Part shown: positions 1,306-64,000 of the stretch, one piece after another
Numbering within the stretch: the first letter of the stretch is position 1
How the letters are laid out: each line of letters opens with the position of its first letter
Source: Vicinamibacterales bacterium
GTDB lineage: Bacteria > Acidobacteriota > Vicinamibacteria > Vicinamibacterales > 2-12-FULL-66-21
Assembly (NCBI GenBank): GCA_036401215.1
Contig: DASWVN010000164.1
Coordinates: forward strand, 9,611 to 73,610
DNA length: 64,000 bases
Direction: 5' to 3'
Made by a program: the position numbers and the translations under genes
The notes under the pieces: model-generated
What the model saw: only the letters and a program-made list of their open reading frames with translations
The model's database searches: none
Told to the model about the DNA's origin: nothing

Positions 1306-1500
1306 GGGTAGGGAACAGGGATCAGGGGACAGGGATCAGGGAACAGGGGACAGGGATCAGGGAACAGGGAACAGGGATGGGCTCACGTGAGACGCCCCCG
1401 CCGCTGTTCGTGCCTGCTTTCTGATCCCTACTCCCCGATCCCTACTTCCCGATCCCTGATCCCTGATCCCTACTCCCTGATCCCTGATCCCTGTTCCCTA
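1306..1500. repeat. Inverted array of GGGAWCA-type heptamers (G-rich arm 1306-1381, spacer 1382-1421, C-rich arm 1422-1500)
   Basis: Read directly. About 10 heptamer units per arm. The outer 19 nt TAGGGAACAGGGATCAGGG (1309-1327) is the exact reverse complement of 1482-1500. The spacer begins with the self-complementary CTCACGTGAG. Confidence 0.9.
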
Positions 1501-1692
1501 GTTGGGCAGCATCGTCCGCAGCTTCGCCTCGTCGGCGGCTGCCACGAGCGTCGTCCCCTTCAGCCCGCGCTTGCGGCTGCGGGTCTTGCTCGTGAGGATG
1601 TGGCGCTTGAACGCGCTGCTCCGCTTGAACTTTCCGGTGCCCGTCTTCTTGAACCGCTTGGCGGCCCCTCTATGCGTCTTCAGTTTCGGCAT
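1498..1692 (-). CDS. rpmI: 50S ribosomal protein bL35
   Basis: ORF track: [24 protein letters not shown]. An AAGGA SD lies upstream. Position between infC and rplT. Confidence 0.95.
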
Positions 1693-2518: not shown

Positions 2519-4486
2519 CTAGGCGAACTGAACGTCTTCCTTCTTGCCGTCCTTCGTCTCCGACGTTTTGGCGGCGATCTCGCGCTGTGCTCCCTCGATG
2601 AACTCCGCCAGGCCGCGCGAACCCAGGTCGCCGGCGACCCGGCTGCGCACGGCCACTTTACCTTCGGTGGCCTCGCGATCCCCGATCACCAGCATATAGG
2701 GGATCTTCTGGAGTTGGGCCTCCCGAATCTTGAAGCCGATCTTCTCCTGCCGGTCGTCGAGCTCGGCCCGCAACCCGGCGGCCTCGAGCTGCGCCAGCAC
2801 GGTGCGCCCGTATTCGATGTGACGGTCGGCGATCGGCAGCACCGTCACCTGGACGGGCGCGAGCCACAGCGGGAACGCTCCCGCGTAATGCTCGATCAGC
2901 AGCGCGATGAACCGCTCGAAGCTGCCGAAGATCGCCCGATGAATGACGACGGGCGTGTGCTCCGCGTTGTCGGCGCCGATGTACTTCAGGCCGAAACGCT
3001 GCGGCATCTGGTAATCGAGCTGGATCGTGGCGCACTGCCACTTGCGGCCGATCGCGTCGGTGATGTCGAAGTCGATCTTCGGCCCGTAGAACGCGCCATC
3101 CCCCTCGTTGACCGAGTAGACCTGTCCGGCAGCCTCGAGCGCCTGCTTCAACGCCGCCTCGGCGTGGTCCCACGTCGAGATCTCGCCGAGGAACTCCGCC
3201 GGCCGCGTGGACAGCTTGGCTTCGTACTGTAAACCGAAGTCGCGGTACACGCGCTGCACCAGACGCAGCAGCGCCTCGACCTCCTCCGCGATCTGGTCCT
3301 CGGTCACGAAGCAATGCGCATCGTCCTGCGAGAACTGGCGGACGCGGGTGAGCCCGGTCAGCACGCCGGAGGCTTCATTCCGATGCAGCGGCGTCTGCTC
3401 GTGGAAGCGCAGCGGCAGGTCCTTGTAGCTGCGGACCTCGCTTGCGAAGACGAGCATGTGGCCCGGGCAGTTCATCGCCTTGACGCCCATCTCCTCGCCG
3501 TCGCGCCCTTCCACGAGGAACATGTTCTCGCGGTAGTGCTGCCAGTGGCCGGACGTCTCCCACAACGCCTTGTTGTAGATGAGCGGCGTCTTCAGTTCCA
3601 CGTAGCCGGCGGGGAAGAGCACTTCCCGCATGTAGTCGGCGAGCGTGTTGTAGAGCGTCGCACCCTTGGCGAGCCAGAACGTCGCGCCCGGCGCCCACGG
3701 GTGGAACGTGAACAGGCCGATGTCCTTGCCGACGCGCCGGTGATCGCGCTTCTTCGCCTCCTCGAGGCGATGCAGGTGCGCCTGGAGGTCCTTGTCGCTG
3801 AAGAACGCCGTGCCGTAGATGCGCTGCATCGGCTGGTTCTTCGCGTCACCCTTCCAGTACGCGTTCGACGTGCTGAGCAGCTTGAACGCCTTCAGCCGTC
3901 CGCTCGACGGCACGTGCGGCCCCACGCAGAAGTCGACGAAGGTCTCGCGGTCCTTGATCGTGTAGCAGGACACCGCGCGCTGGCCTTCGGTCTTCTCCTC
4001 GATCAGCTGCACCTTCAGCGGCTCGCCCCGATCCCCGAAGAAGCGGATCGCCTCGCTCCGGTCCCACATCTGTCGTTCGTAGGGGAGGTCCTGCGACGCC
4101 AGCTCCTTCATCTTCTTCTCGATCGCGTCCAGATCTTCCGGAACGAATGGACGATCGACGACGAAGTCGTAGAAGAAGCCTTCATCGGTCGCGGGCCCGA
4201 TGCCGCACTGCGCACCGGGGAAGAGGTTCGTGACCGCTGCGGCGAGCAGATGCGCCGTGCTGTGACGATAGACGTGCAGTCCCTCGGGGCTGTCCGGCGT
4301 GATGATGCGCACGCGCGCGTCCTGCGCGAGTGGATAGGTGAGATCGACGAGACGGTCGTCGACCTCCGCGGCAAGCGCCGCCTTCGCCAGACGAGGCGAG
4401 ATGGATGCCGCCAGCGCTCCCGGGGTCGTCCCGGCGGGCACGCGACGGCTGGAGCCATCGGGCAACGTGACGGTGATCTCTTGCAT
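2519..4486 (-). CDS. thrS: Threonine--tRNA ligase
   Basis: The ORF track frame is 2519..4627. I place the start at Met48 ([16 protein letters not shown], the canonical TGS-domain start), because the longer ORF would overlap the tRNA gene. Class II motifs are present throughout. Confidence 0.93.
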
Positions 4487-4504
4487 GGGGAGGGCTGGCT
4501 CGCC

Positions 4505-4536
4505 TTGCGGATACGTTCCTATCGCGGATGCGTTCC
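4505..4536 (-). promoter_or_regulatory. Duplicated 15-mer in the thrS 5' leader (GGAACGCAUCCGCGA / GGAACGUAUCCGCAA on the transcript)
   Basis: Plus-strand 4522-4536 and 4505-4519, with a 17-nt period, 19 nt upstream of the thrS ATG. Confidence 0.35.
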
Positions 4537-4582
4537 TGTTAATGGAGTCCTTCAGATTGTCGACCGGCATCGCCGAGTCGAG

Positions 4583-4659
4583 TGGTAGGCACGGGCAGAC
4601 TCGAACTGCCGACCTCCTGCGTGTCAAGCAGGCGCTCTAACCAACTGAGCTACGCGCCT
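4583..4659 (-). tRNA. tRNA-Val (anticodon GAC), CCA encoded
   Basis: Reverse complement reads AGGCGCGTAGCTCAGTTGGTTAGAGCGCCTGCTTGACACGCAGGAGGTCGGCAGTTCGAGTCTGCCCGTGCCTACCA. It has a 7-bp acceptor stem (one G-U), a D-loop AGCTCAGTTGGTTAGAGC, an anticodon loop TTGACAC and a T-arm GGCAG-TTCGAGT-CTGCC. Confidence 0.93.
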
Positions 4660-19790: not shown

Positions 19791-19886
19791 CCTTCGACTC
19801 GCTGCGCTCGCTCAGGGCGAGCCCTTCGACTCGCTGCGCTCGCTCAGGGCGAGCCCTTCGACTCACTTCGTTCGCTCAGGGCAGGC
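19791..19886. repeat. Three tandem 32-nt units CCTTCGACTCGCTGCGCTCGCTCAGGGCGAGC
   Basis: Units at 19791-19822, 19823-19854 and 19855-19886 (the third diverged). Related 39-nt cores occur at 31057-31095 and 31131-31169, and a truncated copy near 27385-27405. Confidence 0.9.
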
Positions 19887-22404: not shown

Positions 22405-22504
22405 AGCACCCCGATGCACCTTGAAGCACCCCGACGCACCCCGAGGCACCCTGATGCACCTTGAAGCACCCCGACGCACCCCGACGCACCCTGACGCACC
22501 TTGA
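22405..22504. repeat. Ten tandem 10-mers GCACCYYGAN (with a 40-bp higher-order period)
   Basis: gcaccccgat gcaccttgaa gcaccccgac gcaccccgag gcaccctgat gcaccttgaa gcaccccgac gcaccccgac gcaccctgac gcaccttgac. Confidence 0.95.
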
Positions 22505-28814: not shown

Positions 28815-31027
28815 GGGCCGCGCGCGCGCTGGTCACGGCGGCGGCCTGCCTCATCGTCGCGTCGGCTGCGACGGCACAGGTTCCCGACTGGCCGACCGAA
28901 CGTCCACCACGTCCGCTCCCGGCCAGGGACGTCACCTTTCCGCCCTACGAGATCCGGACGCTCCCGAACGGCCTGCAGGTCATCGCGGTTTCGCATCACG
29001 AGCAGCCGGCGGTCAGCCTGCGGCTGATCATTCGGGCCGGATCCGCGCAGGATCCCGACAAGAAGACCGGCCTGGCGAACCTCGCCGCTTCGCTTCTCGA
29101 TCAGGGCACGACGACGAAGAGCGCGGAGCAGGTGGCGCAGTCGATCGACTCGATCGGCGGGGCGCTCGGTGTCGGGGCAGGAACCGACCTCACGTCGATC
29201 TTCGCCGCCGTCATGCGGAACAGTCTCGACGTCGGGCTCGACATCATCGCCGACATCGCGCGAAACCCGTCATTCGATCCTCAGGAGATCGAGCGCCAGC
29301 GGCAGCAGATGATCTCGGCGATGAAGGTCAGCTACGAGGACCCGGATTATCTCGCGGCGAGCGTGTTCGAACGGCTCGTGTACGGCTTCCATCCGTACGG
29401 CAAGCCGGATGCGGGCACGCCCGCCTCGCTGGCGGCGATCACGCGTGAGGACCTCGTCGCCTTCCACAAGCGATACTTCGGTCCGAACAACGCGATCCTC
29501 GCGGTGGTCGGCGACGTCACGGCAGAACAGGCGTTTGCCGGCGCCGAACGCGCGTTCGGCAAGTGGGAGAAGATCGAGGTGCCGATCGCGCCGGCCGGGG
29601 ACGTTCCGCCACCGACCCGGCGCGTCGTCATTATCGACCGTCCGGGAGCGGTGCAGACCGAGATCCGCGTCGGCCACGTCGGGCTTCCACGCAAGCACAA
29701 GGACTATCTTGCGCTCGACCTGGCGCTGAAGATCCTCGGAGGCGAGGGCGGCAACCGCCTGCACCGCGTGCTGCGCAGCGAACGAGGATTGACCTACGGC
29801 GCCGAGGCCGACATCCACGCGCTGAAGGACGCCGGCCATATCGTAGCCAGCACCGACACGCGGTCCGACACGACGGCCGAAGCCTTGCGGCTGATCGTCG
29901 ACGAGTTCGCGCGGCTCCGCAGGGAGCGCGTGCACCCGCGCGAGCTGGGTGACGCCCAGGCCTATCTCACCGGGAGCTTCCCGCTGACGATCGAAACGCC
30001 CGGTGCCATCGCGCTGCAGGTGCTCAATGCCGTCGTATACGGGCTCGATCTCCAGGAGCTGCAGACCTACCGCGAGCGCGTCAACAGTATTACGCCGGAA
30101 GACATTCAGCGGGTGGCGCAACTCTATCTGCACCCGGACCGGCTCTCGATCGTACTGGTCGGCGACGCCAACGTGTTCGCGAAGCAGCTTCCGGCCGTCG
30201 GCTTCGATCAGGTTGAGCGGATTCCGCTCTCCCAACTCGATCTCACCGCCGTGGACTTGCGCGCCCCATCCCGCGCCACGCCCGCACGCCGGGAGCCGCT
30301 GCGATTCGGGCCGCAGCTGGTCCCGGCATCGTTCACGAGCACGGCGCCGGCCCCGCAACCCGACGACACCAGGCGGCTGATCGAGAAGGCCATCGATGCG
30401 AAGGGAGGGCTCGAACGCCTGCGTTCGATCAAGACCGTACGGTCCGACTCTGAACTGATTTTCGCCACGCCCTCCGGCAATGCGAAGGTCAAGACGAAAG
30501 CGTACGTGCGCTACCCGGGCCAGTTCCGCGTGGATGCGGAAGGCCCCGACGGTCTGCGGATCCAGACCTTCGACAACGGAAGCGCGTGGGTCGGCGACGG
30601 CACCGGCGTCGAGGACGCGCCGCCGATGATCGTACGGATCATGGAGGCGAGCATTCAGCGTGACACTGTCGGTCTGCTGCTCGCGCTGATCGACAAGCGG
30701 GTGGCCGGCCAGCGTCTGAGCGACGTGCAGTTCGACGGCAAGGCGTGCCCCGCGCTCGAAGTTCAACTGAATCCCGCCGGCCGCGTCGTCCTCATTTTCG
30801 ATCCGGCGACCGGCCTCCTGGTCCAGCAGCGCTATGGTGGAGACGCCACCGAGGCGGCGACCGAAGAGCGGTTCAGCGACTACCGTCAGGTGGAGGGCCT
30901 CCAGGTGGCCCACCGAGCCATCCTCAAGCGCGCAAACAATCCCCCAGTCGAACGCCTCGTCCGCACCTTCGAGATCAACGTCCCCATCGAAGCGTCGTTC
31001 TTCAAGAAACCCGCTGACCGTCACTGA
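28811..31027 (+). CDS. M16 family peptidase-like protein lacking HxxEH, with a ~250-aa C-terminal extension
   Basis: M16 fold (GLANLAASLLDQGT in place of HxxEH). After about residue 480 there is an extra beta-rich domain (KGGLERLRSIKTVRSDSELIF...YVRYPGQFRVDAEGPDG...) that resembles LolA/RseB-like modules. That resemblance is a guess. 4-nt overlap with the upstream M16 gene. Confidence 0.8.
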   Translation: MRAARALVTAAACLIVASAATAQVPDWPTERPPRPLPARDVTFPPYEIRTLPNGLQVIAVSHHEQPAVSLRLIIRAGSAQDPDKKTGLANLAASLLDQGTTTKSAEQVAQSIDSIGGALGVGAGTDLTSIFAAVMRNSLDVGLDIIADIARNPSFDPQEIERQRQQMISAMKVSYEDPDYLAASVFERLVYGFHPYGKPDAGTPASLAAITREDLVAFHKRYFGPNNAILAVVGDVTAEQAFAGAERAFGKWEKIEVPIAPAGDVPPPTRRVVIIDRPGAVQTEIRVGHVGLPRKHKDYLALDLALKILGGEGGNRLHRVLRSERGLTYGAEADIHALKDAGHIVASTDTRSDTTAEALRLIVDEFARLRRERVHPRELGDAQAYLTGSFPLTIETPGAIALQVLNAVVYGLDLQELQTYRERVNSITPEDIQRVAQLYLHPDRLSIVLVGDANVFAKQLPAVGFDQVERIPLSQLDLTAVDLRAPSRATPARREPLRFGPQLVPASFTSTAPAPQPDDTRRLIEKAIDAKGGLERLRSIKTVRSDSELIFATPSGNAKVKTKAYVRYPGQFRVDAEGPDGLRIQTFDNGSAWVGDGTGVEDAPPMIVRIMEASIQRDTVGLLLALIDKRVAGQRLSDVQFDGKACPALEVQLNPAGRVVLIFDPATGLLVQQRYGGDATEAATEERFSDYRQVEGLQVAHRAILKRANNPPVERLVRTFEINVPIEASFFKKPADRH

Positions 31028-31199
31028 TCCCGGACCCGGACCCCGGACTCTGGACCCCACCCTTCGACTCGCTCCGCTCGCTCAGGGCAGGCACCCCGGA
31101 CCCCGGACCGCGGACCGCGGACCGCGGACCCCACCCTTCGACTCGCTCCGCTCGCTCAGGGCAGGCACCCCGGACCGCGGACCGCGGACCGCGGACAGC
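31028..31199. repeat. 74-bp tandem duplication made of a 39-nt core plus CGGACCS heptamer runs
   Basis: The core CCACCCTTCGACTCGCTCCGCTCGCTCAGGGCAGGCACC occurs at 31057-31095 and 31131-31169. CCGGACC / CGGACCG heptamers lie before, between and after the cores. Confidence 0.9.
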
Positions 31200-31211
31200 G
31201 ATAATGTCTCC

Positions 31212-32351
31212 ATGCGCGTGATGATCTCCTGTGGCGAGCCGTCCGGCGATTTGTACGCCGGCGCGCTGGCGTCCGAGATCCTGCGTCTCGAACCTTCCGC
31301 AACGATCACCGGCTTTGGCGGGGATCGCCTCGCCGCCGCGGGGGCCGGGCTGGTCGGCAACTTCAGCGGGCTGTCGGTAACGGGTCTGCTCGAGGTCGTC
31401 CGGCTGCTGCCACGAACCTACGCCACCTACAAGCGGCTGCTTGCCGACGCCGACACGATCCGCCCCGACGTCTTCGTGGCGATCGATTTCCCCGACTTCA
31501 ACTTCACCGTGGCTCGCGCGATGAAGAAGCGCGGGATCCCCGTCGTCTACTACATCAGCCCGCAGCTCTGGGCCTGGCGGGCCGGACGCATGAAGACGAT
31601 GCAGCGCATCGTCGATCGGATGCTGGTGATCTTTCCGTTCGAGGAGCAGATCTACCGCGCCGCCGGCGTCCCCGTCGAGTGGGTGGGACACCCGCTCTTC
31701 GACGTGCAGCCGGCGCAACAGGAGCGCGAGCCCTTTCTGCGCTCGCAGGACCTGGATCCCTCGAGGCCGGTCCTGGCGTTGCTGCCCGGCAGCCGCACGA
31801 ACGAACTCCGCGCGATTCTGCCAACACTGGCGCAGGCCGTTCCGGCCATCCGGGCGCGCGTCCCGCAGGCGCAGTTCCTCGTGGCGCGTGCGCCGCATCT
31901 TCGCGACGACTTGTTCACGCCCTTTCGCGAGCTGCAATCGAACGGCACGACGCTCCTGATGGTGAATGGACATGCCGACGATGTGCTGGCATCTTCGGAC
32001 GCGGCCATCGTGGCGTCGGGAACCGTCACGGTGCAGGCGGCGCTGCACGAGTGTCCAATGGTGGTCGTGTACCGGTTGTCGCCGCTGACGTACCGCGTCG
32101 GCAAGCCGTTCGTTCGCGTCGACACCTACGCGATGGCAAATCTCGTGGCCGGCCGGCGGATCGTCCCTGAGCTGATCCAGGACGGATTCACGCCGGAGGC
32201 CGCGACGGCCGAAGCGGTCCGGCTGCTGAGCGACCGTGCGTACGCCGATCGCGTGCGCGCCGATCTGCGCGAGGTCCGGAGCAAGCTCGGCGGACCCGGC
32301 GCGAGCCGCCGCGCGGCGGAGGCGGTGCTGGAAGTTGCTCGCGGGAAGTAG
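31212..32351 (+). CDS. lpxB: Lipid-A-disaccharide synthase
   Basis: MRVMISCGEPSGDLYAG...DFPDFNF...YYISPQLWAWR...GHPL are LpxB motifs. The ORF track frame 30834.. is trimmed to this ATG. Confidence 0.92.
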   Translation: MRVMISCGEPSGDLYAGALASEILRLEPSATITGFGGDRLAAAGAGLVGNFSGLSVTGLLEVVRLLPRTYATYKRLLADADTIRPDVFVAIDFPDFNFTVARAMKKRGIPVVYYISPQLWAWRAGRMKTMQRIVDRMLVIFPFEEQIYRAAGVPVEWVGHPLFDVQPAQQEREPFLRSQDLDPSRPVLALLPGSRTNELRAILPTLAQAVPAIRARVPQAQFLVARAPHLRDDLFTPFRELQSNGTTLLMVNGHADDVLASSDAAIVASGTVTVQAALHECPMVVVYRLSPLTYRVGKPFVRVDTYAMANLVAGRRIVPELIQDGFTPEAATAEAVRLLSDRAYADRVRADLREVRSKLGGPGASRRAAEAVLEVARGK

Positions 32352-32588
32352 GGATCAGGGATCAGGGAACAGGGTGAAACTCCGAATTCTGAACTCCGAA
32401 CTCCGAACTGACTTCGAATTCATAGTTCGGAGTTCATAATTCGGAGTTCATAGTTCGGAGTTCATAGTTCGCAGTTTTACCCGGTTCCTCATCCCCGAGC
32501 CCCCCATTCCCCATTCCCGTCCCTGATCCCTGATCCCCGATCCCTGATCCCTGACCCCTGATCCCTGTTCCCCGTTCCCTGTTCCCTC
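32351..32588. repeat. Nested two-family palindrome: outer GGGAWCA arms (32351-32374 / 32521-32588), inner AACTCCGAA / TTCGGAGTTCATA arms (32375-32410 / 32425-32477)
   Basis: Read directly. The centre carries GAATTC twice (32384-32389, 32416-32421). Confidence 0.9.
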
Positions 32589-32597
32589 GTTCTACAC

Positions 32598-36170: not shown

Positions 36171-38921
36171 ATGGCCTCGCTCAATTCCTTCAATTCGCGT
36201 CACCGTTTCACCGCCGGTGGCAGCTCCTTCGAGTTCTATAGCCTTCCGGCGCTCGAGCGCTCCGGCTATCCCGAAATCGCCAGGCTGCCGTACTCGCTCA
36301 AGATCCTGCTGGAGAACCTGCTGAGGCGCGAGGACGGGCGCTTCGTCAAAGGCGACCAGGTCGAAGCGCTGGCGCGGCGCGACGTGACCGCCGGTACACA
36401 CAAGGAAATTGCGTTCACGCCTGCGCGCGTTCTGTTGCAGGACTTCACGGGCGTTCCGGCCGTGGTCGATCTCGCGGCGATGCGCGACGGGATCGTGCGC
36501 CTCGGTGGCGACCCGGCGAAAGTCAATCCGCTGCAACCGGTCGAACTGGTCATCGACCACTCGGTGCAGGTCGATCACTACGCCGAACGAAACGCGGCCG
36601 ACCTGAACGCGGCGCTGGAGTTCGCGCGAAACAAGGAGCGGTACACGTTCCTCCGCTGGGGACAGGAGGCCTTCCGGAACTTCCGCGTCGTTCCGCCCGA
36701 CACCGGCATCGTCCACCAGGTGAACCTCGAATACCTGGCGCGCGTCGTCTTCCGCGAGGACTCGAACGGCGTCACGATCGCCTACCCGGACACGCTGGTC
36801 GGCACCGACTCCCACACCACGATGGTCAACGGGCTCGGCGTCGTCGGCTGGGGTGTCGGCGGCATCGAGGCGGAGGCGGCAATGCTGGGGCAGCCGATCT
36901 CGATGCTCATTCCCGACGTGATCGGCTTCCATCTCGTGGGACGTCTTCCCGAAGGCGCAACCGCGACGGACCTCGTGCTCACGATCACGGAACGGCTCCG
37001 CAAGTTCGGCGTCGTCGGCAAGTTCGTCGAGTTCTTCGGACCCGGCCTCGAGTCGCTGACCATTGCCGACCGTGCCACGCTCGGCAACATGTCGCCCGAG
37101 TACGGCGCGACGATCGCCATCTGCCCGATCGACGACATGACGCTCGACTACCTGCGGCTCACCGGCCGTGACGAGGCGCACGTGCAGCTCGTCGAGGCGT
37201 ACGCGAAGGAGCAGGGGCTGTTCAGCGGCGCCGGCGCGCCGGAGCCGGTCTACACGGCGACGATCGAGCTGGATCTTTCGACCGTCGAACCCAGCCTCGC
37301 CGGACCGAAGCGTCCGCAGGACCGCGTGTCGCTCCGCCAGGCGAAGAGCAAATTCGAGCAGGCGCTCGCCTCGATGCTGACCGACGGCAAAGCGGCGGCG
37401 CCGGCGGCGGCCGCCAGGCCGGGCGACGCGGCACCGGCGGCGGCATCCGCCGCGAGCGCCGCGGCGACCGCCACGCTCGAGCTGACCCCCGAGATCGACG
37501 ATCTCGATCATGGATCGGTCGTCGTCGCGGCGATCACGAGCTGTACGAACACGTCCAATCCGAGCGTCATGATCGGCGCCGGCCTGCTGGCGCGCAACGC
37601 GGTCCAGCGCGGGTTGACGGTGAAGCCATGGGTGAAGACGAGTCTCGCGCCGGGCTCGCTCATCGTCACCGAGTACTACAAGGCCTCTGGGCTGCTCCAG
37701 TACCTCGAGAAGCTCGGGTTCCACGTCGTCGGGTATGGGTGCACGACCTGTATCGGCAACAGCGGCCCGCTGCCCGACGAGGTGTCGAAGGCGGTCAGGG
37801 ACAAGAACCTCGTCGTCGTGTCGGTGTTGAGCGGCAACCGGAACTTCGAAGGACGCATCCAGTCGCAGGTGCGCGCGAACTACCTGGCCTCTCCGCCGCT
37901 GGTCGTCGCGTATGCGATCGCCGGGAAGATGCAGATCGATCTCACCAGCGAGCCGCTGGGCATCGGATCCGACGGCAAGCCGGTGTATCTGAAGGACATC
38001 TGGCCGTCGGAGCGCGAAATCCAGGAAACGATGCTCAAGTCGGTGAAGACCGAGATGTTCCAATCGAAGTACTCGGAAGTCTTCGACGGCGACGAGCGGT
38101 GGCGCGAGCTGCCGGTGCCGACGGGCGAGCAGTTCGCGTGGGACGATGAGTCGACCTACATCCGCAATCCTCCGTTCTTCGAGGGGATCACGCCCGAGCC
38201 TGCGGCGCCGGCCGACATCACGGGAGCGCGCGTGCTCGCCCTGCTCGGCGACAGCGTCACGACCGACCACATTTCACCGGCGGGAGCGATCCCGGCCGAC
38301 AGCCCCGCAGGGCAGTACCTCATCTCGAAGGGCGTGAAGCCGCGCGACTTCAACTCCTACGGCGCACGCCGCGGGAACCACGAAGTGATGATGCGCGGCA
38401 CGTTCGCCAACATCCGCCTCCGGAACCAGCTCGCGCCCGGCACCGAGGGGGGCTGGACGTCGCTGTTGCCGGACGGCGAGGTGATGAGCATCTACGATGC
38501 GTCGGTGAAATACCGCGAGCGCAACGTGCCGCTGGTCGTGATCGCGGGCAAGGAGTACGGCTCGGGCTCCTCGCGCGACTGGGCGGCGAAGGGCACGCTG
38601 CTGTTGGGGGTCAAGGCGGTCATTGCCGAGAGCTTCGAGCGCATTCACCGCAGCAATCTCGTCAACATGGGGATCCTCCCGCTGCGCTTCAAGGACGGCG
38701 AGACTGCTGCATCCCTGAAGTTGACGGGACGCGAGACGATCGAGATCCTGGGGCTGACCGATTCGCTGAAGGCTGGAGCGGAACTGACGGTGCGCGCCAC
38801 GGGTGAGGACGGCGCCGTTCGGGAGTTCACGGCGATTGCGCGGATCGATACGCCCGAGGAACTGGTCGCGTTCCGGCACGGAGGGATCCTGCCGTACGTG
38901 CTGCGGCAGCTGACGAAGTAG
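36171..38921 (+). CDS. acnA: Aconitate hydratase A
   Basis: 916 aa with full AcnA/IRP-type architecture: [45 protein letters not shown]. Confidence 0.95.
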
Positions 38922-39021
38922 GGAACAGGGAATAGGGACCAGGGATCAGGGAATAGGGATGGGGGGGGAATGGGGGATGAGGGTTACCCATCCCTCATGC
39001 CCCGTCCCCCATTCCTACTCC
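38921..39021. repeat. GGGAWYA heptamer array (38921-38982) with a short complementary C-rich arm (38990-39021)
   Basis: GGGAACAGGGAATAGGGACCAGGGATCAGGGAATAGGGATGGGGGGGGAATGGGGGATGAGGG ... ATCCCTCATGCCCCGTCCCCCATTCCTACTCC. Confidence 0.9.
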
Positions 39022-41357: not shown

Positions 41358-41858
41358 ATGGCGGAAGAAATGAATCCCCTCGAAGAATTGCTCGAAGATG
41401 AATTGAAGGATCTGTACAGCGCGGAAAATCAGATCATCAAGGCGCTGCCCAAGATGGCCAAGGCCGCGGCGGCGCCGGAACTGCGACGGGCGTTCGAGCG
41501 GCACCTCGAGGAAACCCGGCGGCAGGTCGAGCGGCTCGAACAGATCGGCCAGGAACTCGAGATCAAACTCACAGGCAAGAAGTGCAAGGGCATGGAAGGC
41601 CTCATCGCCGAAGGCCGCGAGATCATGGAGGAGGATCTCGAGGAGTCAGCGCTCGATGCCGGCCTGATCGGCGCCGCGCAGAAGGTGGAGCACTACGAGA
41701 TCGCCGCATACGGCACGGCGCGCACCCACGCCGAGATGCTCGGCTACAAGCGCGTCGCGAAGCTGTTGCAGCAGACGCTCAACGAAGAAGGCGCGACGGA
41801 CAAGAAGCTCACGCAGCTAGCCGAGAACGTCGTCAATTACGAGGCGGCGCACGCGTAG
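41358..41858 (+). CDS. Ferritin-like DUF892 (YciE/YciF) family protein
   Basis: LEDELKDLYSAENQIIKALPKM...FERHLEETRRQVERLE...VEHYEIAAYG; GAGGAGG SD. Confidence 0.85.
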   Translation: MAEEMNPLEELLEDELKDLYSAENQIIKALPKMAKAAAAPELRRAFERHLEETRRQVERLEQIGQELEIKLTGKKCKGMEGLIAEGREIMEEDLEESALDAGLIGAAQKVEHYEIAAYGTARTHAEMLGYKRVAKLLQQTLNEEGATDKKLTQLAENVVNYEAAHA

Positions 41859-41876
41859 TACTCTCGCTCGCCGTCA

Positions 41877-42118
41877 GGTGCTGCGTGCTGGGGTGCTGGG
41901 TGCTACGTGCCCGTCGGTGCTGAGTGCTCGGTGCGGTGCTGGGTGCAAGGTGCCGGGGTGCTTCGTGCAAGTGCCGGGTGCTACGTGCTGGTGCGGTGCT
42001 GGGTGCTGGTGTGGTGCTACGTGCACCCAGCACCGGGCACAGCACCCAGCACCGGGCACCGCACCAGCACCGGGCACCGCCCGGCACCCAGCACCCAGCA
42101 CCCAGCACCCAGCACCCG
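41877..42118. repeat. ~240-nt palindrome of GGTGCTG-type heptamers (left arm 41877-42024, right arm CAGCACC 42028-42118)
   Basis: Read directly. The apex lies at GTGCAC near 42022-42027. The right arm ends in five perfect CAGCACC units. Confidence 0.9.
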
Positions 42119-42123
42119 GCGAT

Positions 42124-50118: not shown

Positions 50119-50145
50119 AGAGAAGCATCATAACGTTCGCACGCT

Positions 50146-50333
50146 GAAACTCCGAACTATGAACTCCGAACGATGAACTGCGGAAACTCCGAACTATGAA
50201 CGCCGAACTATGAACTACAGAAACTCCGAACTGTGAACGCCGAACTATGAACTACGGAAACTCCGAACTATGAACGCCGAACTATGAACTGACGGCGCCA
50301 GTTCTGAGTTCGGCGTTCTGAGTTCGGAGTTTT
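50146..50333. repeat. Four tandem ~37-nt units built from AACTCCGAACTATG / AACGCCGAACTATG sub-repeats (50146-50294), plus one inverted arm (50301-50333)
   Basis: Read directly. The reverse complement of the right arm matches each unit at about 28 of 32 positions. Confidence 0.9.
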
Positions 50334-51996
50334 ACGCGGCCTGGGCTTTGTGCAGTTCCGCGGCTCGCTCGAGCGCCACGAGGATGTTCACGCAGATGTT
50401 GCCCTCGCCGACATGGCGATGGAACTCCGCCTGGCGCATGACTGCGGCCGGCTGCTCGCGGGCGCCGCAGAAGAGGATCGTCCGGCCGGAAGCCTGGACG
50501 CGGTCCGCGACTTCCTCGAGGGCCTTGAGTCCGGTGGCATCCAGCGCGGTCATGTTGCGGAGCCGGACGATGACGATCGGCGGCAGCCGGTCGACGCTGT
50601 CGGCGATCACCGCCACCTTGTCGGTCACGCCGAACAGCAGCGGCCCGTGGACCCTGAAGATCGCCACGTAGGACGGAATGTTCTTGTCCTGCAGGCTGTG
50701 CGCGCGGCTCGACTCGATGTAGTCCGACGTCACCATCGACACCGTCGTCGTGGCCGACACGCGGCGGATGTAGAGGAACGCGGCGAGGATCATCCCGACT
50801 TCGACCGCCACGGTGAGATCGGCGGAGACGGTCAGCGCGAAGGTGACGAGCCAGACGCTGATGTCGGTCTTGGTCATCTTCAGCAGCTGCGGGATCTCGT
50901 GCCACTCGCCCATGTTGTAGGCGACCACGAAGAGGATCGCCGCGAGCACGGCCATCGGGATGTAGCTGGCGAGCGGCGCGGCGGCCAGCAGGACCACCAG
51001 CAGCGTGACCGCGTGGATCATGCCCGCTATCGGAGTGCGGGCGCCCGCGCGGATGTTGGTCGCCGTCCGCGCGATCGCCCCCGTCGCCGGAAGGCCGCCG
51101 AAAATCGGGGACGCAATGTTCGCCACACCCTGGCCGATCAGTTCGACGTTCGGATTGTGCCGGTCGTTGCCCATCCGGTCGGAGACGACCGCTGACATCA
51201 GCGACTCGATCGCGCCGAGCGCCGCGACGGTGAGGGCCGGCCTGAGCAGCGACGGGATCAGGCCCGCCTCGAACTTCGGGAAGGTCGGATCCGGCAGGCC
51301 TCCAGGGATGCCGCCGAATCGGGATCCGATGGTGTCGATATCGAGCCCGAACGCCACCGCCGCAACGGTGCCGCCCAGCAGGGCGATGATGGTTCCCGGC
51401 ACCCGCGGCGCCACCTTGCGCAGCACGATGATGGTCGCGAGGGAGACGATCGCCAGGACCGTCGCCGCGGGAGAAATCGTGCCCGCATGCTGCACGAGGG
51501 CCGCCATGCGCTGCGCGAACTCCGAGGGGACCTCCGCCATGGAGATCCCGAAGAAATCGCGAATCTGAGTGCTCGCGATCAGCACGGCGATGCCGTTGGT
51601 AAAGCCAATGACGACCGGCCGCGGCAGGTATTTGACCGCCGCCCCCATGCCGGTGGCGCCGAGGATCAGGAGGATGACGCCGGCCATCATCGTGACCATG
51701 TAGAGGCCGGCCACGCCGAACTCCGCCACGATCCCCGCGACGACGACCACGAACGCACCCGTGGGGCCGCCAATCTGATAGCGGGATCCGCCGAGCGCGG
51801 AAATCAGGAATCCGGTGACGATGGCGCAGTAGATGCCGGCCTGCGGGGTGAGACCCGAGGCGATGGCGAACGCCATGGCGAGCGGCAGCGCGACCAGGCC
51901 GACGGTGACGCCAGCACTCAGGTCGTGCGCAAACGTCGATAACGAATAGTTTTTCAGCGCCAGCACCGAGGCCGGCGCCCAACGCGAAAACTTCAT
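50332..51996 (-). CDS. SulP family anion (sulfate/bicarbonate) transporter with STAS domain
   Basis: 554 aa; about 11 TM helices; SulP motifs (GLVALPLAMAFAIASG, GGPTGAF); C-terminal STAS (VIVRLRNMTALDATGLKALEEV). Confidence 0.9.
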   Translation of the reverse strand: MKFSRWAPASVLALKNYSLSTFAHDLSAGVTVGLVALPLAMAFAIASGLTPQAGIYCAIVTGFLISALGGSRYQIGGPTGAFVVVVAGIVAEFGVAGLYMVTMMAGVILLILGATGMGAAVKYLPRPVVIGFTNGIAVLIASTQIRDFFGISMAEVPSEFAQRMAALVQHAGTISPAATVLAIVSLATIIVLRKVAPRVPGTIIALLGGTVAAVAFGLDIDTIGSRFGGIPGGLPDPTFPKFEAGLIPSLLRPALTVAALGAIESLMSAVVSDRMGNDRHNPNVELIGQGVANIASPIFGGLPATGAIARTATNIRAGARTPIAGMIHAVTLLVVLLAAAPLASYIPMAVLAAILFVVAYNMGEWHEIPQLLKMTKTDISVWLVTFALTVSADLTVAVEVGMILAAFLYIRRVSATTTVSMVTSDYIESSRAHSLQDKNIPSYVAIFRVHGPLLFGVTDKVAVIADSVDRLPPIVIVRLRNMTALDATGLKALEEVADRVQASGRTILFCGAREQPAAVMRQAEFHRHVGEGNICVNILVALERAAELHKAQAA

Positions 51997-52081: not shown

Positions 52082-52522
52082 ATGGCGGAAACCCTCATGC
52101 GAGAGATTTTGCTGCACGGCAGTCCGACGGAGGCGTTCGACCGCTCCGTCGTCTTTGCGCGAAAGATGGCCGAATCCTTCGGTGCGCGGCTCCACGTGCT
52201 CTACACGATCGAGGATCCCCTGTCGGCCGGCTGGACGGCCGAAGTCAGCGCCGAACGGCTCCCCGAAGTGCACGAGGCGATGGAGGCGGAAGCCCGCGAG
52301 CGGCTGGCGCGCTTCATTCCGCCCGGGGATCAGGAGCGTCTGGGCGTGCGGGTGGCGCTCACGCATGGTCCCGCCGGCGACGAGCTGGTTCGCTACACGG
52401 CCGAGAACGATATCGATCTGGCGATCGTCCAGGCGCGTGTCGGCGACAGGAAGGATCCCGATATCGACTACGCGCATGCGCTGCTGGAACGCGGTCGCTG
52501 CGCGGTCTTGATGCTCCGATAG
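52082..52522 (+). CDS. Universal stress protein (UspA family)
   Basis: Usp fold motifs ...LHVLYTIEDP...ENDIDLAIV... Confidence 0.75.
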   Translation: MAETLMREILLHGSPTEAFDRSVVFARKMAESFGARLHVLYTIEDPLSAGWTAEVSAERLPEVHEAMEAEARERLARFIPPGDQERLGVRVALTHGPAGDELVRYTAENDIDLAIVQARVGDRKDPDIDYAHALLERGRCAVLMLR

Positions 52523-52627
52523 GGATCAGGGATCAGGGATCAGGGAACAGGGAACAGGGAGTAGGGATCAGGGATCAGGGATCAGGGATCAGGGATCAGG
52601 ATCAGGGATCAGGGATCAGGGTAAGGG
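52522..52627. repeat. Single-orientation array of ~15 GGGATCA/GGGAACA heptamers filling the usp / aat convergent spacer
   Basis: Read directly. One unit is shortened to 6 nt (GGATCA). No complementary arm is present. Confidence 0.95.
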
Positions 52628-53215
52628 TTACGTAAAGGTCCGGTCCAATCTCAGGGCTTGCGCCAGCAGGCGCAGGTATCGCGGTCGCGGGATCTCGAGG
52701 GCGCCGAATTGTTCCAGGTGTTCCGTGGTCCACTGGGTGTCGAGCAGCATGAAGCCGCGGTCGCGCAGGCGCTCGACGAGCGCGACCAGCGCCACCTTCG
52801 ATGCGTCGGTGACGTGATGGAACATCGACTCACCGAAAAAGGCGCCGCCCAGCGCCACGCCGTATAAACCGCCCGCCAGACGTCCGTCCTGCCACGCTTC
52901 CACCGAATGGGCGAAACCGGCCTCGTGCAGAGCGCAGTAGCTTTCGAAGATTTCGGCGTCGATCCACGTTCCCGCGTCCAGGGGGTCTCGATCGGCTTCG
53001 GCGCACGCGCGGATCACCGCCTCGAAGTCGCGATTGATGACGATCTCGAAGGTTCCCCGCCGGACGACGCGGGCGAGCCGGCGGGGGACGTGGAAGGTGT
53101 CGAGAGGAATGATCCCGCGCGGATCAGGGGAGAACCATCGGATCTCGCCGTTGCCGACTGCCATCGGAAACCACCCGCTCGCGTACGCGGATACGAGCAG
53201 GTCAACCGGCAACAT
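52628..53215 (-). CDS. aat: Leucyl/phenylalanyl-tRNA--protein transferase
   Basis: YASGWFPM...WFSPDPRGIIPL...HVPRRL...GESMFH...LLDTQ motifs. The ORF track frame is trimmed to Met122. Confidence 0.88.
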   Translation of the reverse strand: MLPVDLLVSAYASGWFPMAVGNGEIRWFSPDPRGIIPLDTFHVPRRLARVVRRGTFEIVINRDFEAVIRACAEADRDPLDAGTWIDAEIFESYCALHEAGFAHSVEAWQDGRLAGGLYGVALGGAFFGESMFHHVTDASKVALVALVERLRDRGFMLLDTQWTTEHLEQFGALEIPRPRYLRLLAQALRLDRTFT

Positions 53216-53277
53216 CGAATCGGGCGTCCACTGCGCCGCTGGCTCCGTCCGGAGGCACGCCTCGTTCCCTGATCCCG

Positions 53278-53667
53278 TCAGTGCACCGTGTAGGGTTCGC
53301 TGAGCGTGAACGGCGCGATCTTCGCATCGAACCGCTCGCCGGTCTCCGCCACCATCTGGTAGGTCCCTTCCATCACCCCGAACGCCGTCGTCAGCGGACA
53401 CCCGGACGTATACACGAAAGACTCGCCCGGTTTCAGAATCGGTTGCTTCCCGACGACACCGGGGCCACGCACCTCCTCGACCTTGCCGTCGCCGTCGGTG
53501 ATGATCCAGTGACGGGTGAGCAGCTGGACCGTCTCGGACCCCTCGTTCGAGATCCGGATGGTGTAGAGAAAGAACCACTGGCTGCGGCCTGGCTCCGAGC
53601 GGTCTGGATCGAACTGCGACTCGACGTGCACCCTGACGCCGCGGGTGACCGCTTCCGAGGTAAACAT
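53278..53667 (-). CDS. apaG: ApaG (DUF525) protein
   Basis: VRVHVESQFDPDRSEPGRSQWFFLYTIRISNEG...LLTRHWIITDGDG...VRGPGVVGKQP...F.YTSG. The ORF track frame is trimmed to MFTSEAV. Confidence 0.88.
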   Translation of the reverse strand: MFTSEAVTRGVRVHVESQFDPDRSEPGRSQWFFLYTIRISNEGSETVQLLTRHWIITDGDGKVEEVRGPGVVGKQPILKPGESFVYTSGCPLTTAFGVMEGTYQMVAETGERFDAKIAPFTLSEPYTVH

Positions 53668-61780: not shown

Positions 61781-62668
61781 GTGCCCTTTCTTTCGGCCCT
61801 CGCCTCCGTTGTACTCGTGGTCGTTGCCGCGCAGGCGGTCCCCATGAGCGGGTACGTGCCCGAACGCGTCTACGACACGACACGGAACGCGTTCTCGGAT
61901 TTCGAAGTCATGCTCGCCGACCTTGCGACCGCCGACGTCGTGTTCGTCGGCGAGCAGCACGACGATCCGAACACGCACCGGTTGGAGGTGGCGATCCTCG
62001 AAGGGCTGAAGCAGAGAAAAGTCCCGCCGGTCGTCTCGCTGGAAATGTTCGAGCGGGACGTGCAGAGCGTGCTGGACGCCTATCTCTCGGGCTCCGCGTC
62101 CGAGGAAGAGTTGCTGAAGACCGCGCGTCCGTGGCCGCGGTACAAGACGGACTATCGCGGATTGGTCGAACTCGCGAAGGCCAATGGCTGGCCCGTGATT
62201 GCGGCGAACGTTCCGCGGCGGATTGCCGCCGCCGTCGCGAAAGCAGGCAGCGATGCGGTGGCGCAGCTGCCCGCGGACGACCGCGCGCTGGTGGCGAAAG
62301 AGCGGCAGTGCCCTGAGGACGCGTACTTCGAGCGGTTTGCAAAGACGATGGCGGGGCATCCCGCGCCGAACCAGACGCCGGACGAGCAACGCGCCATGAT
62401 TCTGCGCTACTACTGGTCCCAGTGCGTGAAGGACGAGACCATGGCCGAATCGATCGCCAGCGCCGTCGAGCGTGGAATTCCCGTCGTGCACTACAACGGC
62501 GCGTTCCACAGCGACTTCGGTCTCGGCACCGCCGAACGCGTCCGCCGGCGTCTTCCCGGCAAACGCATCGTCGTCATCTCGATGCTGCCGGTCGAGAACC
62601 TCGATCGGCTCGAGCCCGCCGGCGAGGACCTCCTGCGCGCCGACTATCTCGTCTACACGACAAAGTAA
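61781..62668 (+). CDS. ChaN-like (haem-binding uptake, Tiki-superfamily) protein
   Basis: VFVGEQHDDPNTHRLE...SLEMFERD...WP.Y..DYR.L.E.A......V.AAN.PR. Confidence 0.7.
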   Translation: MPFLSALASVVLVVVAAQAVPMSGYVPERVYDTTRNAFSDFEVMLADLATADVVFVGEQHDDPNTHRLEVAILEGLKQRKVPPVVSLEMFERDVQSVLDAYLSGSASEEELLKTARPWPRYKTDYRGLVELAKANGWPVIAANVPRRIAAAVAKAGSDAVAQLPADDRALVAKERQCPEDAYFERFAKTMAGHPAPNQTPDEQRAMILRYYWSQCVKDETMAESIASAVERGIPVVHYNGAFHSDFGLGTAERVRRRLPGKRIVVISMLPVENLDRLEPAGEDLLRADYLVYTTK

Positions 62669-62721
62669 ACTCCAAACTCCAGACCTTAAGACTTGGGCGT
62701 TGGGAATTGGGAGTTGGGAGC
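62667..62721. terminator. Short imperfect hairpin of AAACTCC / TTGGGAG heptamers between convergent stop codons (candidate bidirectional terminator)
   Basis: AAACTCCAAACTCCAGACC-TTAAG-ACTTGGGCGTTGGGAATTGGGAGTTGGGAG. It fills the spacer exactly between TAA (62666-62668) and TAA (complement of 62722-62724). There is no T-tract. Confidence 0.4.
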
Positions 62722-64000
62722 TTATTTGAGGCGATCCGGCATCTCAGCGATCACGTAGGCCATCACCCCGATCGCGCCGGACGCGCGCGCCATATCCATC
62801 GGGTCGATCTTGTCCACCGTGTCGGCGGGCGTGTGATGCAGGAGGAAGTAGTTCCCATCCACTTCCAGCGACATCGCCGGGATGTTGCCGGCTTCGACGC
62901 TCGGACCAATATCGGCGCCTCCACCTGACGGCCCGATCTGGTCCGCCTGGATCCCGCGTAGAAGCGTGGCGATATCGCGCACGCGGGCGCGGGCGCTCTC
63001 GCTGCCGCTGAAGCCAAACCCTGTCGGCCGGAACACGCCGGAATCGGATTCCAGCATCAGCACGTGATCCTCGAGTTGATCGCGGTAGCGGTCGCGGTAG
63101 GCCGTGCCGCCACGCAGGCCGTTCTCTTCGTTCGTCCAGAGCACGACGCGGACGGTGCGGCGCGGCCGCAGGTTCAACTTCTTCATGAGACGGAGCGCCT
63201 CCCACGTCACCACGCACCCGCCGCCGTCGTCGGTGGACCCCGTACCCACGTCCCACGAATCGATGTGCCCGCCGACGACGATCACTTCGTCGGGACGTTC
63301 ACGGCCGCGGATCTCACCGACGACGTTGAAGGAGTCGGCGTCGGGGAGCATGCGCGCGTCCATCTTGAGGCGGAGCCGGATCGTCGTGCCGCGATCCACC
63401 ATGCGCTGGAGACGATCGGCGTCCTCGGTAGTGATCGCGGCTCCGGGGATCTTCGGCAGGGCAGGATCGTAGTTCAGGCCGCCGGTGTGCGGCGTGCGCA
63501 GCCCTGGCGGGCCAACCGAGCGGACGAGCGCCGCCACGGCGCCGAGCGCCGCGGCGCGCGACGGTCCGGCGGACCGGTGACGGACCGTCTCGCCGTAGGT
63601 CGTAAACGGCACGTTGTAGAGGACGATCTTGCCCTTCACGCGGTCGCCCGCGGCATCCAGTTCCTGGAAGTTGCGGACGATCAGCAGTTCGCCTTCGACC
63701 CCCTCCGGTGGTGTTCCGACGCTGTTGCCGAGGCCGAGCATGACCAGCGAACTCTGGCGTGGCGAGACGATCTCGAGGCTCTCCTGTCCGCGTACCCAGT
63801 GCGGCACCTTCACCGGCTCCTTGCGAACGTTCTCCAAACCGTCCTTCTTCATCTGCTCGACGGCCCAGTCGATCGCGTCCTCCAGCGCCTGCGATCCACT
63901 CAGGCGATGGCCGAACGTGTCGCCGAGTTCGGCCAGCCGTTCCCAGGCGAAATTCGAGGACAGCGCTTCCCCGAGCAGTCGCGCTGCGGGTTCACGATAC
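62722..64000 (-). CDS. M28 family aminopeptidase (N-terminus runs off the window end)
   Basis: The ORF track starts at an internal Met. The frame stays open to 64000 (…RLLGEALSSNFAWERLAELGDTFGHRLSGSQALEDAIDWAVEQMKKDG…). Metal-site motifs GGHIDSWDVGTGSTDDGGG and WTNEENGLRG. Confidence 0.85.
   Translation of the reverse strand, partial: YREPAARLLGEALSSNFAWERLAELGDTFGHRLSGSQALEDAIDWAVEQMKKDGLENVRKEPVKVPHWVRGQESLEIVSPRQSSLVMLGLGNSVGTPPEGVEGELLIVRNFQELDAAGDRVKGKIVLYNVPFTTYGETVRHRSAGPSRAAALGAVAALVRSVGPPGLRTPHTGGLNYDPALPKIPGAAITTEDADRLQRMVDRGTTIRLRLKMDARMLPDADSFNVVGEIRGRERPDEVIVVGGHIDSWDVGTGSTDDGGGCVVTWEALRLMKKLNLRPRRTVRVVLWTNEENGLRGGTAYRDRYRDQLEDHVLMLESDSGVFRPTGFGFSGSESARARVRDIATLLRGIQADQIGPSGGGADIGPSVEAGNIPAMSLEVDGNYFLLHHTPADTVDKIDPMDMARASGAIGVMAYVIAEMPDRLK

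Follow-up and report, generated by a model that had tools for sequence, protein, structure and literature searches.

GGGAWCA heptamer arrays abut the stop codons of upstream genes in a Vicinamibacterales genome

The STRR, several families of heptanucleotides repeated in tandem and dispersed in intergenic DNA, were reportedly recognized in heterocystous cyanobacteria by Mazel and colleagues in 1990, and to our knowledge they have not been described as abutting stop codons. A literature search on STRR returned only fingerprinting uses, and a search on STRR and G-quadruplexes (G4s) at bacterial stop codons returned nothing closer to the present case than the G4-forming heptameric simple sequence repeats of the form GGGNATC that Rehm et al. 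2015 (PMC4692102) described in Xanthomonas (GGGAATC) and Nostoc (GGGGAYT). About 90% of those repeats are intergenic and they lie closer to the 5′ neighboring open reading frame (ORF); on the coding strand they are mostly found at a stop-codon distance of 0–50 bp, overlaps with the stop included, and in the non-coding-strand orientation they lie farther away (PMC4692102). Their function is unknown; they show a preference for four G-tracts, and G4 formation was seen by circular dichroism spectroscopy and K+ dependence (PMC4692102). Here we describe arrays of a related unit, GGGAWCA, in 64,000 nt of gene-dense DNA (66% G+C; hereafter the window, meaning this whole stretch) from a metagenome-assembled genome (MAG) of a soil bacterium of the Vicinamibacterales (Acidobacteriota; GenBank GCA_036401215.1, contig DASWVN010000164.1, positions 9,611 to 73,610). 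Multi-unit GGGAWCA arrays occur at exactly four loci in the window, all intergenic, and each begins on the TAG stop codon of its upstream gene (acnA, lpxB, usp or rpmI).

Tandem Repeats Finder reported period 7 with the consensus AGGGAAC/AGGGATC at all four, and the two-unit pattern GGGAWCAGGGAWCA, allowing at most 2 mismatches, matched 44 times in the window against 1.3 expected. Unit number ranges from 3 to 14, and 14-nt super-units (AACTCCGAACTATG) are repeated across separate loci. The junctions read ...ACG AAG TAG GGAACAGGG for acnA (TAG at 38919–38921), ...GGG AAG TAG GGATCAGGG for lpxB (TAG at 32349–32351), ...CTC CGA TAG GGATCAGGG for usp (TAG at 52520–52522) and, on the minus strand, ...CCC AAC TAG GGAACAGGG for rpmI (stop at 1500..1498 rather than 1501..1499; the plus strand reads CTAG there). 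The upstream genes are genuine by Pfam (Aconitase, LpxB, Usp and Ribosomal_L35p). An initial annotation of this DNA, made from the sequence alone, had claimed that four of four arrays start on the upstream TAG and that the TAGGGAW unit also occurs inside the arrays; the first statement held at AcnA, LpxB, Usp and L35, and the second was confirmed by GGGAGTAGGGATC within arrays. It knew of no described element with this property, but to say that none has been described is inaccurate, as Rehm et al. 2015 (PMC4692102) had described both the class and its stop-proximal coding-strand bias.

We compared each locus with syntenic relatives, namely L244 (AcnA 91% identical), L245 (86%) and L246/L247 (85%), with L248–L253 found through Usp and L254–L256 found through L20; the starts of lpxB, aat and thrS were assigned by hand from Pfam and the relatives. 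The acnA gene (36171..38921, plus strand, 916 aa, supported by Pfam) ends one residue below the modal tail of its homologues and runs into array C (38919..38960, plus strand, ~6 units), whose first unit includes the AG of the TAG and which is not found at the same site in L244–L246. Behind array C lies an older hairpin with a G-arm and a C-arm of the GGGGAAT/GGGGGAT type (38961..39015, plus strand), which by alignment is common to L244 and has the predicted stem GGAATGGGGGATGAGGG/CCCTCATGCCCC..CATTCC. The lpxB gene (31203..32351, plus strand, 382 aa, supported by Pfam) ends in EVARGK, four residues shorter than in L244 and L246, and leads into the nested hairpin B (32349–32590), in which GGGATCA arms surround AACTCCG arms: the G-arm starts on the lpxB TAG (32349..32376, plus strand), the inner AACTCCG / CGGAGTT(CATAGTT) heptamer hairpin follows (32378..32476, plus strand), and the outer return arm, C-rich on the plus strand and thus GGGAWCA on the minus strand (32520..32590), pairs with 32349–32376 and ends ~15 nt before the ATG of the next gene (32605). 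Array D (52520..52627, plus strand, ~14 units) has no complementary arm and extends from the TAG of usp (52082..52522, plus strand, 146 aa, ending RCAVLMLR) to the TAA of aat (52630..52628, minus strand); the Usp end is native, with the Pfam profile reaching the last residue. On the minus strand, rpmI (1498..1692, L35 of 64 aa, ending MLPN, the same terminal residue as in the array-free relative L254) abuts the right arm of hairpin A (1421..1500, minus strand, GGGAWCA/GGGAGTA units), whose first unit includes the AG of the rpmI TAG and whose stem is predicted to pair from the T of that codon. The left arm of hairpin A (1308..1378, plus strand, ~10 units) opens with TAGGGAAC at a site where no gene ends, 19 nt from the start of rplT. 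Where G-array edges face gene starts they read TA-GGG (1308) and GA-GGG (32587).

The same usp-TAG-GGATCA junction was present in three independent short-read assemblies of the same strain (Logan contigs L121–L123), whose contigs break within the array: those with usp run only 27–28 nt into the GGGATCA repeats, and the one on the SulP side stops within the AACTCCG array. These arrays are thus real rather than assembly artefacts, and they break assemblies.

Beyond the window, species-representative genomes scanned with (GGGAWCA)3GGG yielded at least 120 loci, and metagenomes scanned with the variant GGGAWCAGGGAGTAGGGAWCAGGG yielded at least 120 further loci, mostly from peat and soil. Counts from these scans are samples, drawn among the matches listed, and the search patterns favor arrays with at least four G-tracts. 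Hosts in the genome scan were Acidobacteriaceae, Terracidiphilus, Granulicella, Vicinamibacterales, Gemmatimonadales, Longimicrobium, many Nostocales (in which GGGAACA arrays were common) and Oscillatoriales, and a few others; none of the 240 listed loci came from a relative with the same mix of families as the window. Of the metagenome arrays with a long sense ORF ending at most 150 nt upstream, 52 of 64 start 0–9 nt past the stop, with six exact TAG overlaps and three TAA at −1. The main peak, at 5–9 nt, corresponds to a stop followed by one degenerate A-rich unit (e.g., TGAaaaagca-GGGAACAGGGAGTAGGG). Orientation mattered: with the G-rich strand as sense, the array lay within 10 nt of the stop in 49 of 61 metagenome cases and 21 of 43 genome cases, whereas with the C-rich strand as sense this was so in only 4 of 37 and 2 of 35, respectively. 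The robust result is this orientation-specific flushness, which for a G-rich sense strand holds in both Acidobacteriota and cyanobacteria. Convergent genes each have a sense G-array of their own after their own stop, the two arrays being the arms of one hairpin (e.g., the convergent pairs in L154 and L172). Measured to gene starts, the 5′ edge of the G-strand lies a median of 31 nt from divergent starts and its 3′ edge a median of 101 nt from co-directional ones. Among arrays outside the selection imposed by the search patterns, 76, 27, 22, 5 and 2 had 2, 3, 4, 5 and 6 G-tracts, respectively, giving a shoulder at four and no peak. We also observed a near-identical module, aaaagCA GGGAACA GGGAGTA GGGAACA GGG aacag, with exactly four G-tracts, past the stops of many unrelated genes in different metagenomes of peat Acidobacteria (e.g., L138, L162 and L179).

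These properties place the arrays close to the repeats of Rehm et al. 2015 (PMC4692102). Both consist of tandem copies of a 7-nt unit that combines GGG with a 4-nt loop (from 2 to over 20 copies in the arrays of Rehm et al.), and the window arrays share the intergenic bias, the coding-strand proximity to stops, the frequent convergent inverted pairs with a G-arm followed by a C-arm (hairpins A, B and C, and L154 and L172) and the variability of length and sequence between close relatives. They differ in the unit itself (GGGAWCA, with GGGAGTA/GGGAATA variants), in their hosts (Acidobacteriota, both Vicinamibacterales and Acidobacteriaceae), in a stop distance that is resolved to 0–10 nt and is exactly 0 in this genome, and in coexisting and nesting with several non-G4 heptamer families to build hairpins of 100–270 nt. 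Like the cyanobacterial STRR, the window holds several heptamer families in tandem, dispersed in intergenic DNA, but the phylum and the unit sequences are different, so that the defined STRR units are not those found here, though GGGAACA arrays do occur in Nostocales. Another similar case is TAACTGA, a direct heptamer repeat found in Beggiatoaceae, cyanobacteria and Bacteroidetes (MacGregor 2015, PMC4679880). These repeats too are abundant intergenic tandems of patchy phylogenetic distribution that keep a set place with respect to ORF boundaries, and they are also present in ribosomal-protein operons; they differ in lying a few nt upstream of start codons, in being A/T-rich and not G4-forming, and in having mostly 2–6 copies. 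A further likeness is to the REP/BIME of Enterobacteria and Pseudomonas, dispersed intergenic hairpin-forming repeats that are often found at gene 3′ ends and inside operons. REP/BIME affect mRNA stability and termination and mediate rearrangements. A REP is a single imperfect palindrome of 20–40 nt with conserved sequence that is mobilized by RAYT (Y1) transposases, whereas the window arrays are tandem 7-mers of variable length and family. Rfam 15 contains no family that matches the arrays at gathering score, the only match in the window being a tRNA at 4586–4659.

Whether TAG itself is special is a separate matter. Of the 47 long-ORF stops in the window, 14 (30%) are TAG, which puts the chance of four TAG in four arrays at p ~0.008; adding the two other junctions of this order with GGGAWCA in the sense orientation (a TGA in the window and a TAA in L117, both described below) makes it 4 of 6 (p ~0.07). 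Among 290 ORFs of this order we found no significant association of TAG with G-rich downstream sequence (Fisher, p = 0.31), with a crude ORF caller that over-counts TAG there. Nor was there any stop bias beside arrays in other Acidobacteria, the listed matches (143 arrays) giving 18 TGA, 17 TAG and 17 TAA against a same-loci background of 147, 135 and 105. There is no general TAG rule. A universal TAG start was considered and rejected, since, among the matches listed, CA preceded the first GGG in 43 arrays of 146 and TA did so in 36; for the 143 metagenome arrays the figures were 90 and 22, respectively. The commonness of TAG, the drop to p ~0.07 and the null result over 290 ORFs would all suit plain coincidence in a compact genome, in which arrays fill any short spacer, TAG genes precede four of them by chance, and the overlap comes only from a unit that starts with AG. 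We nevertheless judge coincidence unlikely: exact flushness and strand specificity are far from random over the ~250 arrays among the matches listed, and other families in the window also overlap or abut stops (TAA-ACTCC, TAA-AACTCCG and TGA-TCCCGGA).

We are inclined, with modest confidence, to regard the GGGAWCA arrays as G4- and hairpin-prone heptamer microsatellites, STRR-like and of the kind described by Rehm et al. 2015, whose 5′ edge is pinned at the stop, the coincidence with TAG arising from boundary and register in a genome that is very compact rather than from targeting. Such arrays would lengthen and shorten by slipped-strand mispairing and might be copied or recombined between loci, and the 5′ edge would advance upstream only as far as the first constrained bases, that is, the stop codon and the last essential residues. 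Because CAGGGAW is one transition from TAGGGAW and TAG is already there in the common variants GGGAGTA/GGGAATA, a TAG stop could be absorbed into the first unit or regenerated from it; with other stops, 0–9 nt of degenerate unit would be left between stop and array. Where C-terminal residues are dispensable (AcnA, LpxB and perhaps L35 in L256), the array edge may have moved into the gene and the stop may be array-derived, and where the end is constrained, as in Usp, the native TAG may have merged with the first unit. The TAG overlap would then be the extreme, at zero distance, of a general and strand-specific tendency for G-rich heptamer arrays to start at a stop. Other families behave alike at stops that suit them (TAA-ACTCC, TGA-TCCCGGA).

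The protein ends bear on the proposal of the initial annotation that the element supplies the stop codon. AcnA ends in LTK where relatives end in LTKQ, LVRS or LVKA; following the GGILPYVLR motif, only 2 of 95 homologues have four residues and 61 of 95 have five. LpxB ends in EVARGK against EVARGRARVN or EVASRAALAR in relatives, and its last bases (codons GGG AAG TAG), GGGAAGTAGGGATC, are a 14-mer that is internal to array A. The Usp C-terminus, by comparison, is invariant (RCAVLxLR in 19 homologues), and L35 ends at the same Asn as in array-free L254. In the rpmI-rplT spacer, L254 reads AAT TAA GAGGACACC ATG and the window reads AAC TAG, a 190-nt hairpin, then TACCCGCG TAA GGACACGAAG ATG; a stop and Shine-Dalgarno region of the L254 type is thus kept downstream of the array, and rpmI itself ends on another codon, one that is joined to the array. 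The same arrangement is seen in L256 with a GGGGCCN array. This difference may reflect gain of the array or a deletion in L254. The shortening of AcnA and LpxB and the rpmI remnant therefore favor supply of the stop by the array, but TAG is already present in the closest relatives that carry no GGGAWCA array (acnA in L244 and L245, lpxB in L244, usp in L248 and L252), and the ends of Usp and L35 are native. Aligning the C-termini, a check the initial annotation had called for, revealed loss of one residue in AcnA and four in LpxB and no large change; large truncation or extension of the four proteins was rejected, as the Pfam profiles reach their ends and the Usp end is invariant.

Spacers filled by arrays in the window are short in the relatives: M16-lpxB is 175 nt against 61–92 nt, lpxB to the next gene 246 nt against 3–65 nt, infC-rpmI 164 nt against 0–2 nt, rpmI-rplT 208 nt against 9–67 nt, usp-aat 105 nt against 23–122 nt, and acnA-queG 107 nt against an annotated 16–43 nt (the true spacer in L244 is ~90 nt). 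Where relatives with AcnA 85–91% identical have 0–90 nt, the window has 107–246 nt of array. The arrays are therefore recent gains, lineage-specific and variable. Strains differ unit by unit within an array, and relatives, in which the heptamer families of the window recur, often have a different family in place: (TTCCGGC)n flush against the TAG of SulP in L249, (GGAGCCC)3 before lpxB in L246, and GGGGAAT-type repeats after acnA in L244. Alignment of the acnA array to L244 shows 42 extra nt between the TAG and the older shared repeat and no TA at the right edge, and at lpxB the arrays take over the whole spacer up to a conserved TACAC motif. We also noted that the infC-rpmI-rplT operon is normally tightly coupled (spacers of 0–2 nt and 9 nt in L254), while the window has a 164-nt GGCTTCC/CCGGAAG heptamer hairpin between infC and rpmI (1693–1856) and the 208-nt GGGAWCA hairpin between rpmI and rplT (1290–1497). 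Translational coupling and L20 autoregulation must differ here, or must read through these structures.

A rival explanation is that the array and hairpin modules are non-autonomous mobile DNA. They would insert at the very ends of coding sequences, either in the TA of TAA/TAG or immediately ahead of the stop, and would carry a stop of their own, the element contributing the G of TAG. The TAA and Shine-Dalgarno remnant in rpmI-rplT relative to L254, with L256 alike for another G-rich family, would fit this, as would a reading of usp as CGA TA-array-TA A GGG TTA, the TA outside both arms of hairpin A, the array in L059 that starts TAGGGATCA where no gene ends, the presence of two-armed modules in spacers that measure 0–9 nt in relatives, and the recurrence of 14-nt super-units (AACTCCGAACTATG) at separate loci. 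We consider it improbable all the same. No TA is found at the acnA right edge aligned to L244, the lpxB arrays replace rather than interrupt the spacer, array-free relatives already have TAG in three of the four genes, arrays vary unit by unit between strains, junctions flush with TGA and TAA exist in this order, and no transposase was seen, although no search aimed at transposases was made. Elsewhere, 90 of 143 arrays among the matches listed start CA-GGG with any stop 5–9 nt upstream, which, with the acnA edge and the background stop usage given above, also gives no support to the insertion specificity for TA/TAG that the initial annotation had offered as one possibility. Hairpin A does resemble the TA, terminal inverted repeats and TA of miniature inverted-repeat transposable elements derived from Tc1/mariner/IS630. 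Unlike those elements, the arrays have neither a fixed length nor a conserved internal sequence (3–14 units, differing arm lengths, unit-level differences between strains), and TA is found on both sides only at hairpin A and arguably array D. TA target-site duplication was accordingly rejected as a general feature, failing at acnA, which has no right-edge TA, and at lpxB, where the whole spacer is replaced. Less likely again is the stronger version in which heptamer modules of the Vicinamibacterales are self-propagating DNA at the 3′ boundary of coding sequences that replaces the native stop (TA-G for G-rich families, TA-A for AACTCC), with the rpmI-rplT TAA and Shine-Dalgarno region as its footprint; if true, they would be a class of stop-codon-targeting, non-autonomous elements without a described transposase.

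Folding calculations indicate what the arrays might do. A forward array is often trailed by its own reverse complement, which makes the spacer foldable as a long imperfect hairpin; the predicted hairpins span 100–270 nt with stems 60–130 nt long that begin at the first base of the stop codon. The rpmI-rplT spacer (hairpin A) has a minimum free energy (MFE) of −130.6 kcal/mol, compared with −78 ± 5 kcal/mol for shuffles, and for 41856–42126 the prediction is −194 compared with −129 kcal/mol. ViennaRNA with G4 energies predicts quadruplexes in arrays C and D, the MFE of array D being −36.0 with G4 and −21.2 without. By these models, the arrays can fold into very stable hairpins with a stem from the stop codon or, unpaired, into G4s. 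They are not intrinsic terminators in the sense of a short GC-rich hairpin plus U-run, as no T-run follows the 3′ arms (CCCTACCCGCGTAAGG; CCCTCGTTCTACAC; CATTCCTACTCCAGCC). Their most likely role, we infer, is that of a gene-end structure, either a long hairpin or a G4 (RNA or hybrid), formed on the sense or non-template strand. It would make RNA polymerase pause or terminate, or would shield or insulate the mRNA at its 3′ end. A mitochondrial case in which transcription is terminated by a nascent-RNA G4 is on record (PMC3488243).

A function at the level of translation would place the same structures in the footprint of the terminating ribosome (0–10 nt past the stop), where a G4 or hairpin could modulate termination, recycling or re-initiation, the TAG overlap being the closest placement. 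In E. coli, REP elements very close to stop codons reportedly modulate these same three steps, as Liang, Rudd and Deutscher are said to have found in 2015. The 0–10 nt window is far tighter than a terminator or a 3′-end protector needs and is specific to the sense orientation, the modeled stems start at the first base of the stop, and arrays lie inside translationally coupled ribosomal-protein operons. But they are unconserved between close relatives and follow genes of unrelated function, and the G-strand also has its 5′ edge anchored close to divergent gene starts, at which ribosomes do not terminate; we regard this function as doubtful.

Several considerations tell against our preferred view of the arrays as microsatellites pinned at the stop. 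Four exact TAG overlaps in four are still unlikely within the window (p ~0.008) if the junction register is free. That flushness is confined to the G-rich orientation is not accounted for by symmetric selective pinning alone, and a strand-specific function or a mutational polarity would have to be added; the position of the G-strand 5′ edge near divergent starts fits DNA-level polarity at least as well as it fits an RNA function. That anchoring and the poor conservation between relatives keep explanations by mutational polarity or by mobile modules alive, and two-armed hairpins of 164–208 nt in spacers that are 0–9 nt in relatives look, from these comparisons, more like the arrival of a ready-made module than slippage in situ. 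The second possibility raised in the initial annotation, that selection trims the spacers to the coding boundary, is upheld in that arrays are packed at that boundary beyond chance, but symmetric trimming, which takes no account of orientation, cannot be the whole story because flushness is strongly orientation-specific. The most economical idea for the flushness of the G-rich orientation would be a structure acting on the sense or non-template strand, namely the 5′ arm of a hairpin or a G4 (RNA or hybrid), which would make the polymerase pause or shield the 3′ end.

Other families and other stops show comparable placement. The initial annotation had noted that the AACTCC family behaves similarly with TAA, and this was borne out at ChaN (AAG TAA ACTCC, 62666) and SulP (GCG TAA AACTCCG, 50334..50332, minus strand), as was its description of two convergent spacers as pure array from stop to stop (52523–52627 and 62669–62721). 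The second of these spacers is filled by a hairpin of AAACTCC ×2 / TTGGGAG ×4 (62666..62721, plus strand) that shares 2 nt with the ChaN TAA (62666–62668) and stops 2 nt short of the TAA of the minus-strand gene (62724..62722). An AACTCCG / AACTATG heptamer hairpin array (50119..50334, minus strand) begins immediately past the SulP TAA, and directly after the TGA of the M16 peptidase gene (31025–31027) lie TCCCGGA/ACCGCGG heptamer arrays with two copies of a 32-mer (31025..31202, plus strand), ending at the lpxB ATG. The exception to the TAG pattern, missed in the initial annotation, is a mini-array of two units, GGGATCAGGGAACG (53263..53276, minus strand), 1 nt after the TGA of DUF525/ApaG (53280..53278), with the junction TGA-C-GGGATCA. 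Another Vicinamibacterales genome, L117, has the GGGAWCA junction TAA-CAGGGATCA, and further flush junctions in this order are TAG-TTCCGGC in L249 and a TGA overlapping AACTCC in L252. In L059 (5340–5440, reverse-complement coordinates), a small YHS-like gene ending in TAA is followed by CGAAGGG/TTAAGGG heptamers and then by a GGGATCA array beginning TAGGGATCA. The TAG that opens this array is not a gene stop; together with position 1308 of the window, it is the second TA-initiated array edge away from a stop.

Tandem Repeats Finder also showed that many intergenic spacers in the window consist mostly of period-7 arrays, ~1.3 kb in total, from at least seven and about eight families (AGGGAWC; AACTCCG; TCCGGGG/ACCCCGG/ACCGCGG; GGTGCTG/GCACCCA; GCACGTA; GCCGGAA; TTGGGAG). 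A second, non-heptamer dispersed family is the 32-mer CCTTCGACTCGCTGCGCTCGCTCAGGGCGAGC, present three times in tandem at 19791–19882 and twice at 31058–31166 between the M16 peptidase gene and lpxB, interleaved there with CCCGGAC/ACCGCGG heptamers. The only long array in the window with another period (10/20/40; GCACCCCGAC / GCACCTTGAA) is at 22405–22504, upstream of a gene starting at 22501. The tRNA gene found by Rfam (4586–4659, minus strand, 70.6 bits) extends over the 5′ end of the thrS ORF in its longest form (2519..4627), and the real thrS start must therefore be further downstream; the protein of relatives has 641 aa. Around aat, array D (plus strand) and the mini-array at 53263–53276 (minus strand) form an inverted GGGAWCA repeat. 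The aat gene (in the region 52628–53276; minus strand, true start MLPVD at 53215) is inverted relative to L249–L253, where the order is usp+, aat+, DUF525−; L248 has the inverted order. This arrangement suggests inversion of aat by recombination between arrays.

What is new here is the acidobacterial host, the GGGAWCA unit and a sharper description of a known repeat class; the arrays are not a new element that targets stop codons. Sense-strand heptamer repeats set close against stop codons are now found in three distant groups, the xanthomonads, the cyanobacteria and the Acidobacteriota, and because their placement is sharp (0–10 nt) and orientation-specific, the question of what they do is testable. 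They may represent a widespread, unconventional gene-end signal, in which a G4 or long hairpin acts on RNA polymerase, ribosomes or exonucleases in phyla poor in classical terminators, or else the outcome of a polar mutational process. Whichever holds, the arrays move the C-termini of proteins by a few residues, break up short-read assemblies of this lineage systematically and appear to drive a gene inversion, all of which is relevant to the annotation of MAGs and to understanding genome evolution.

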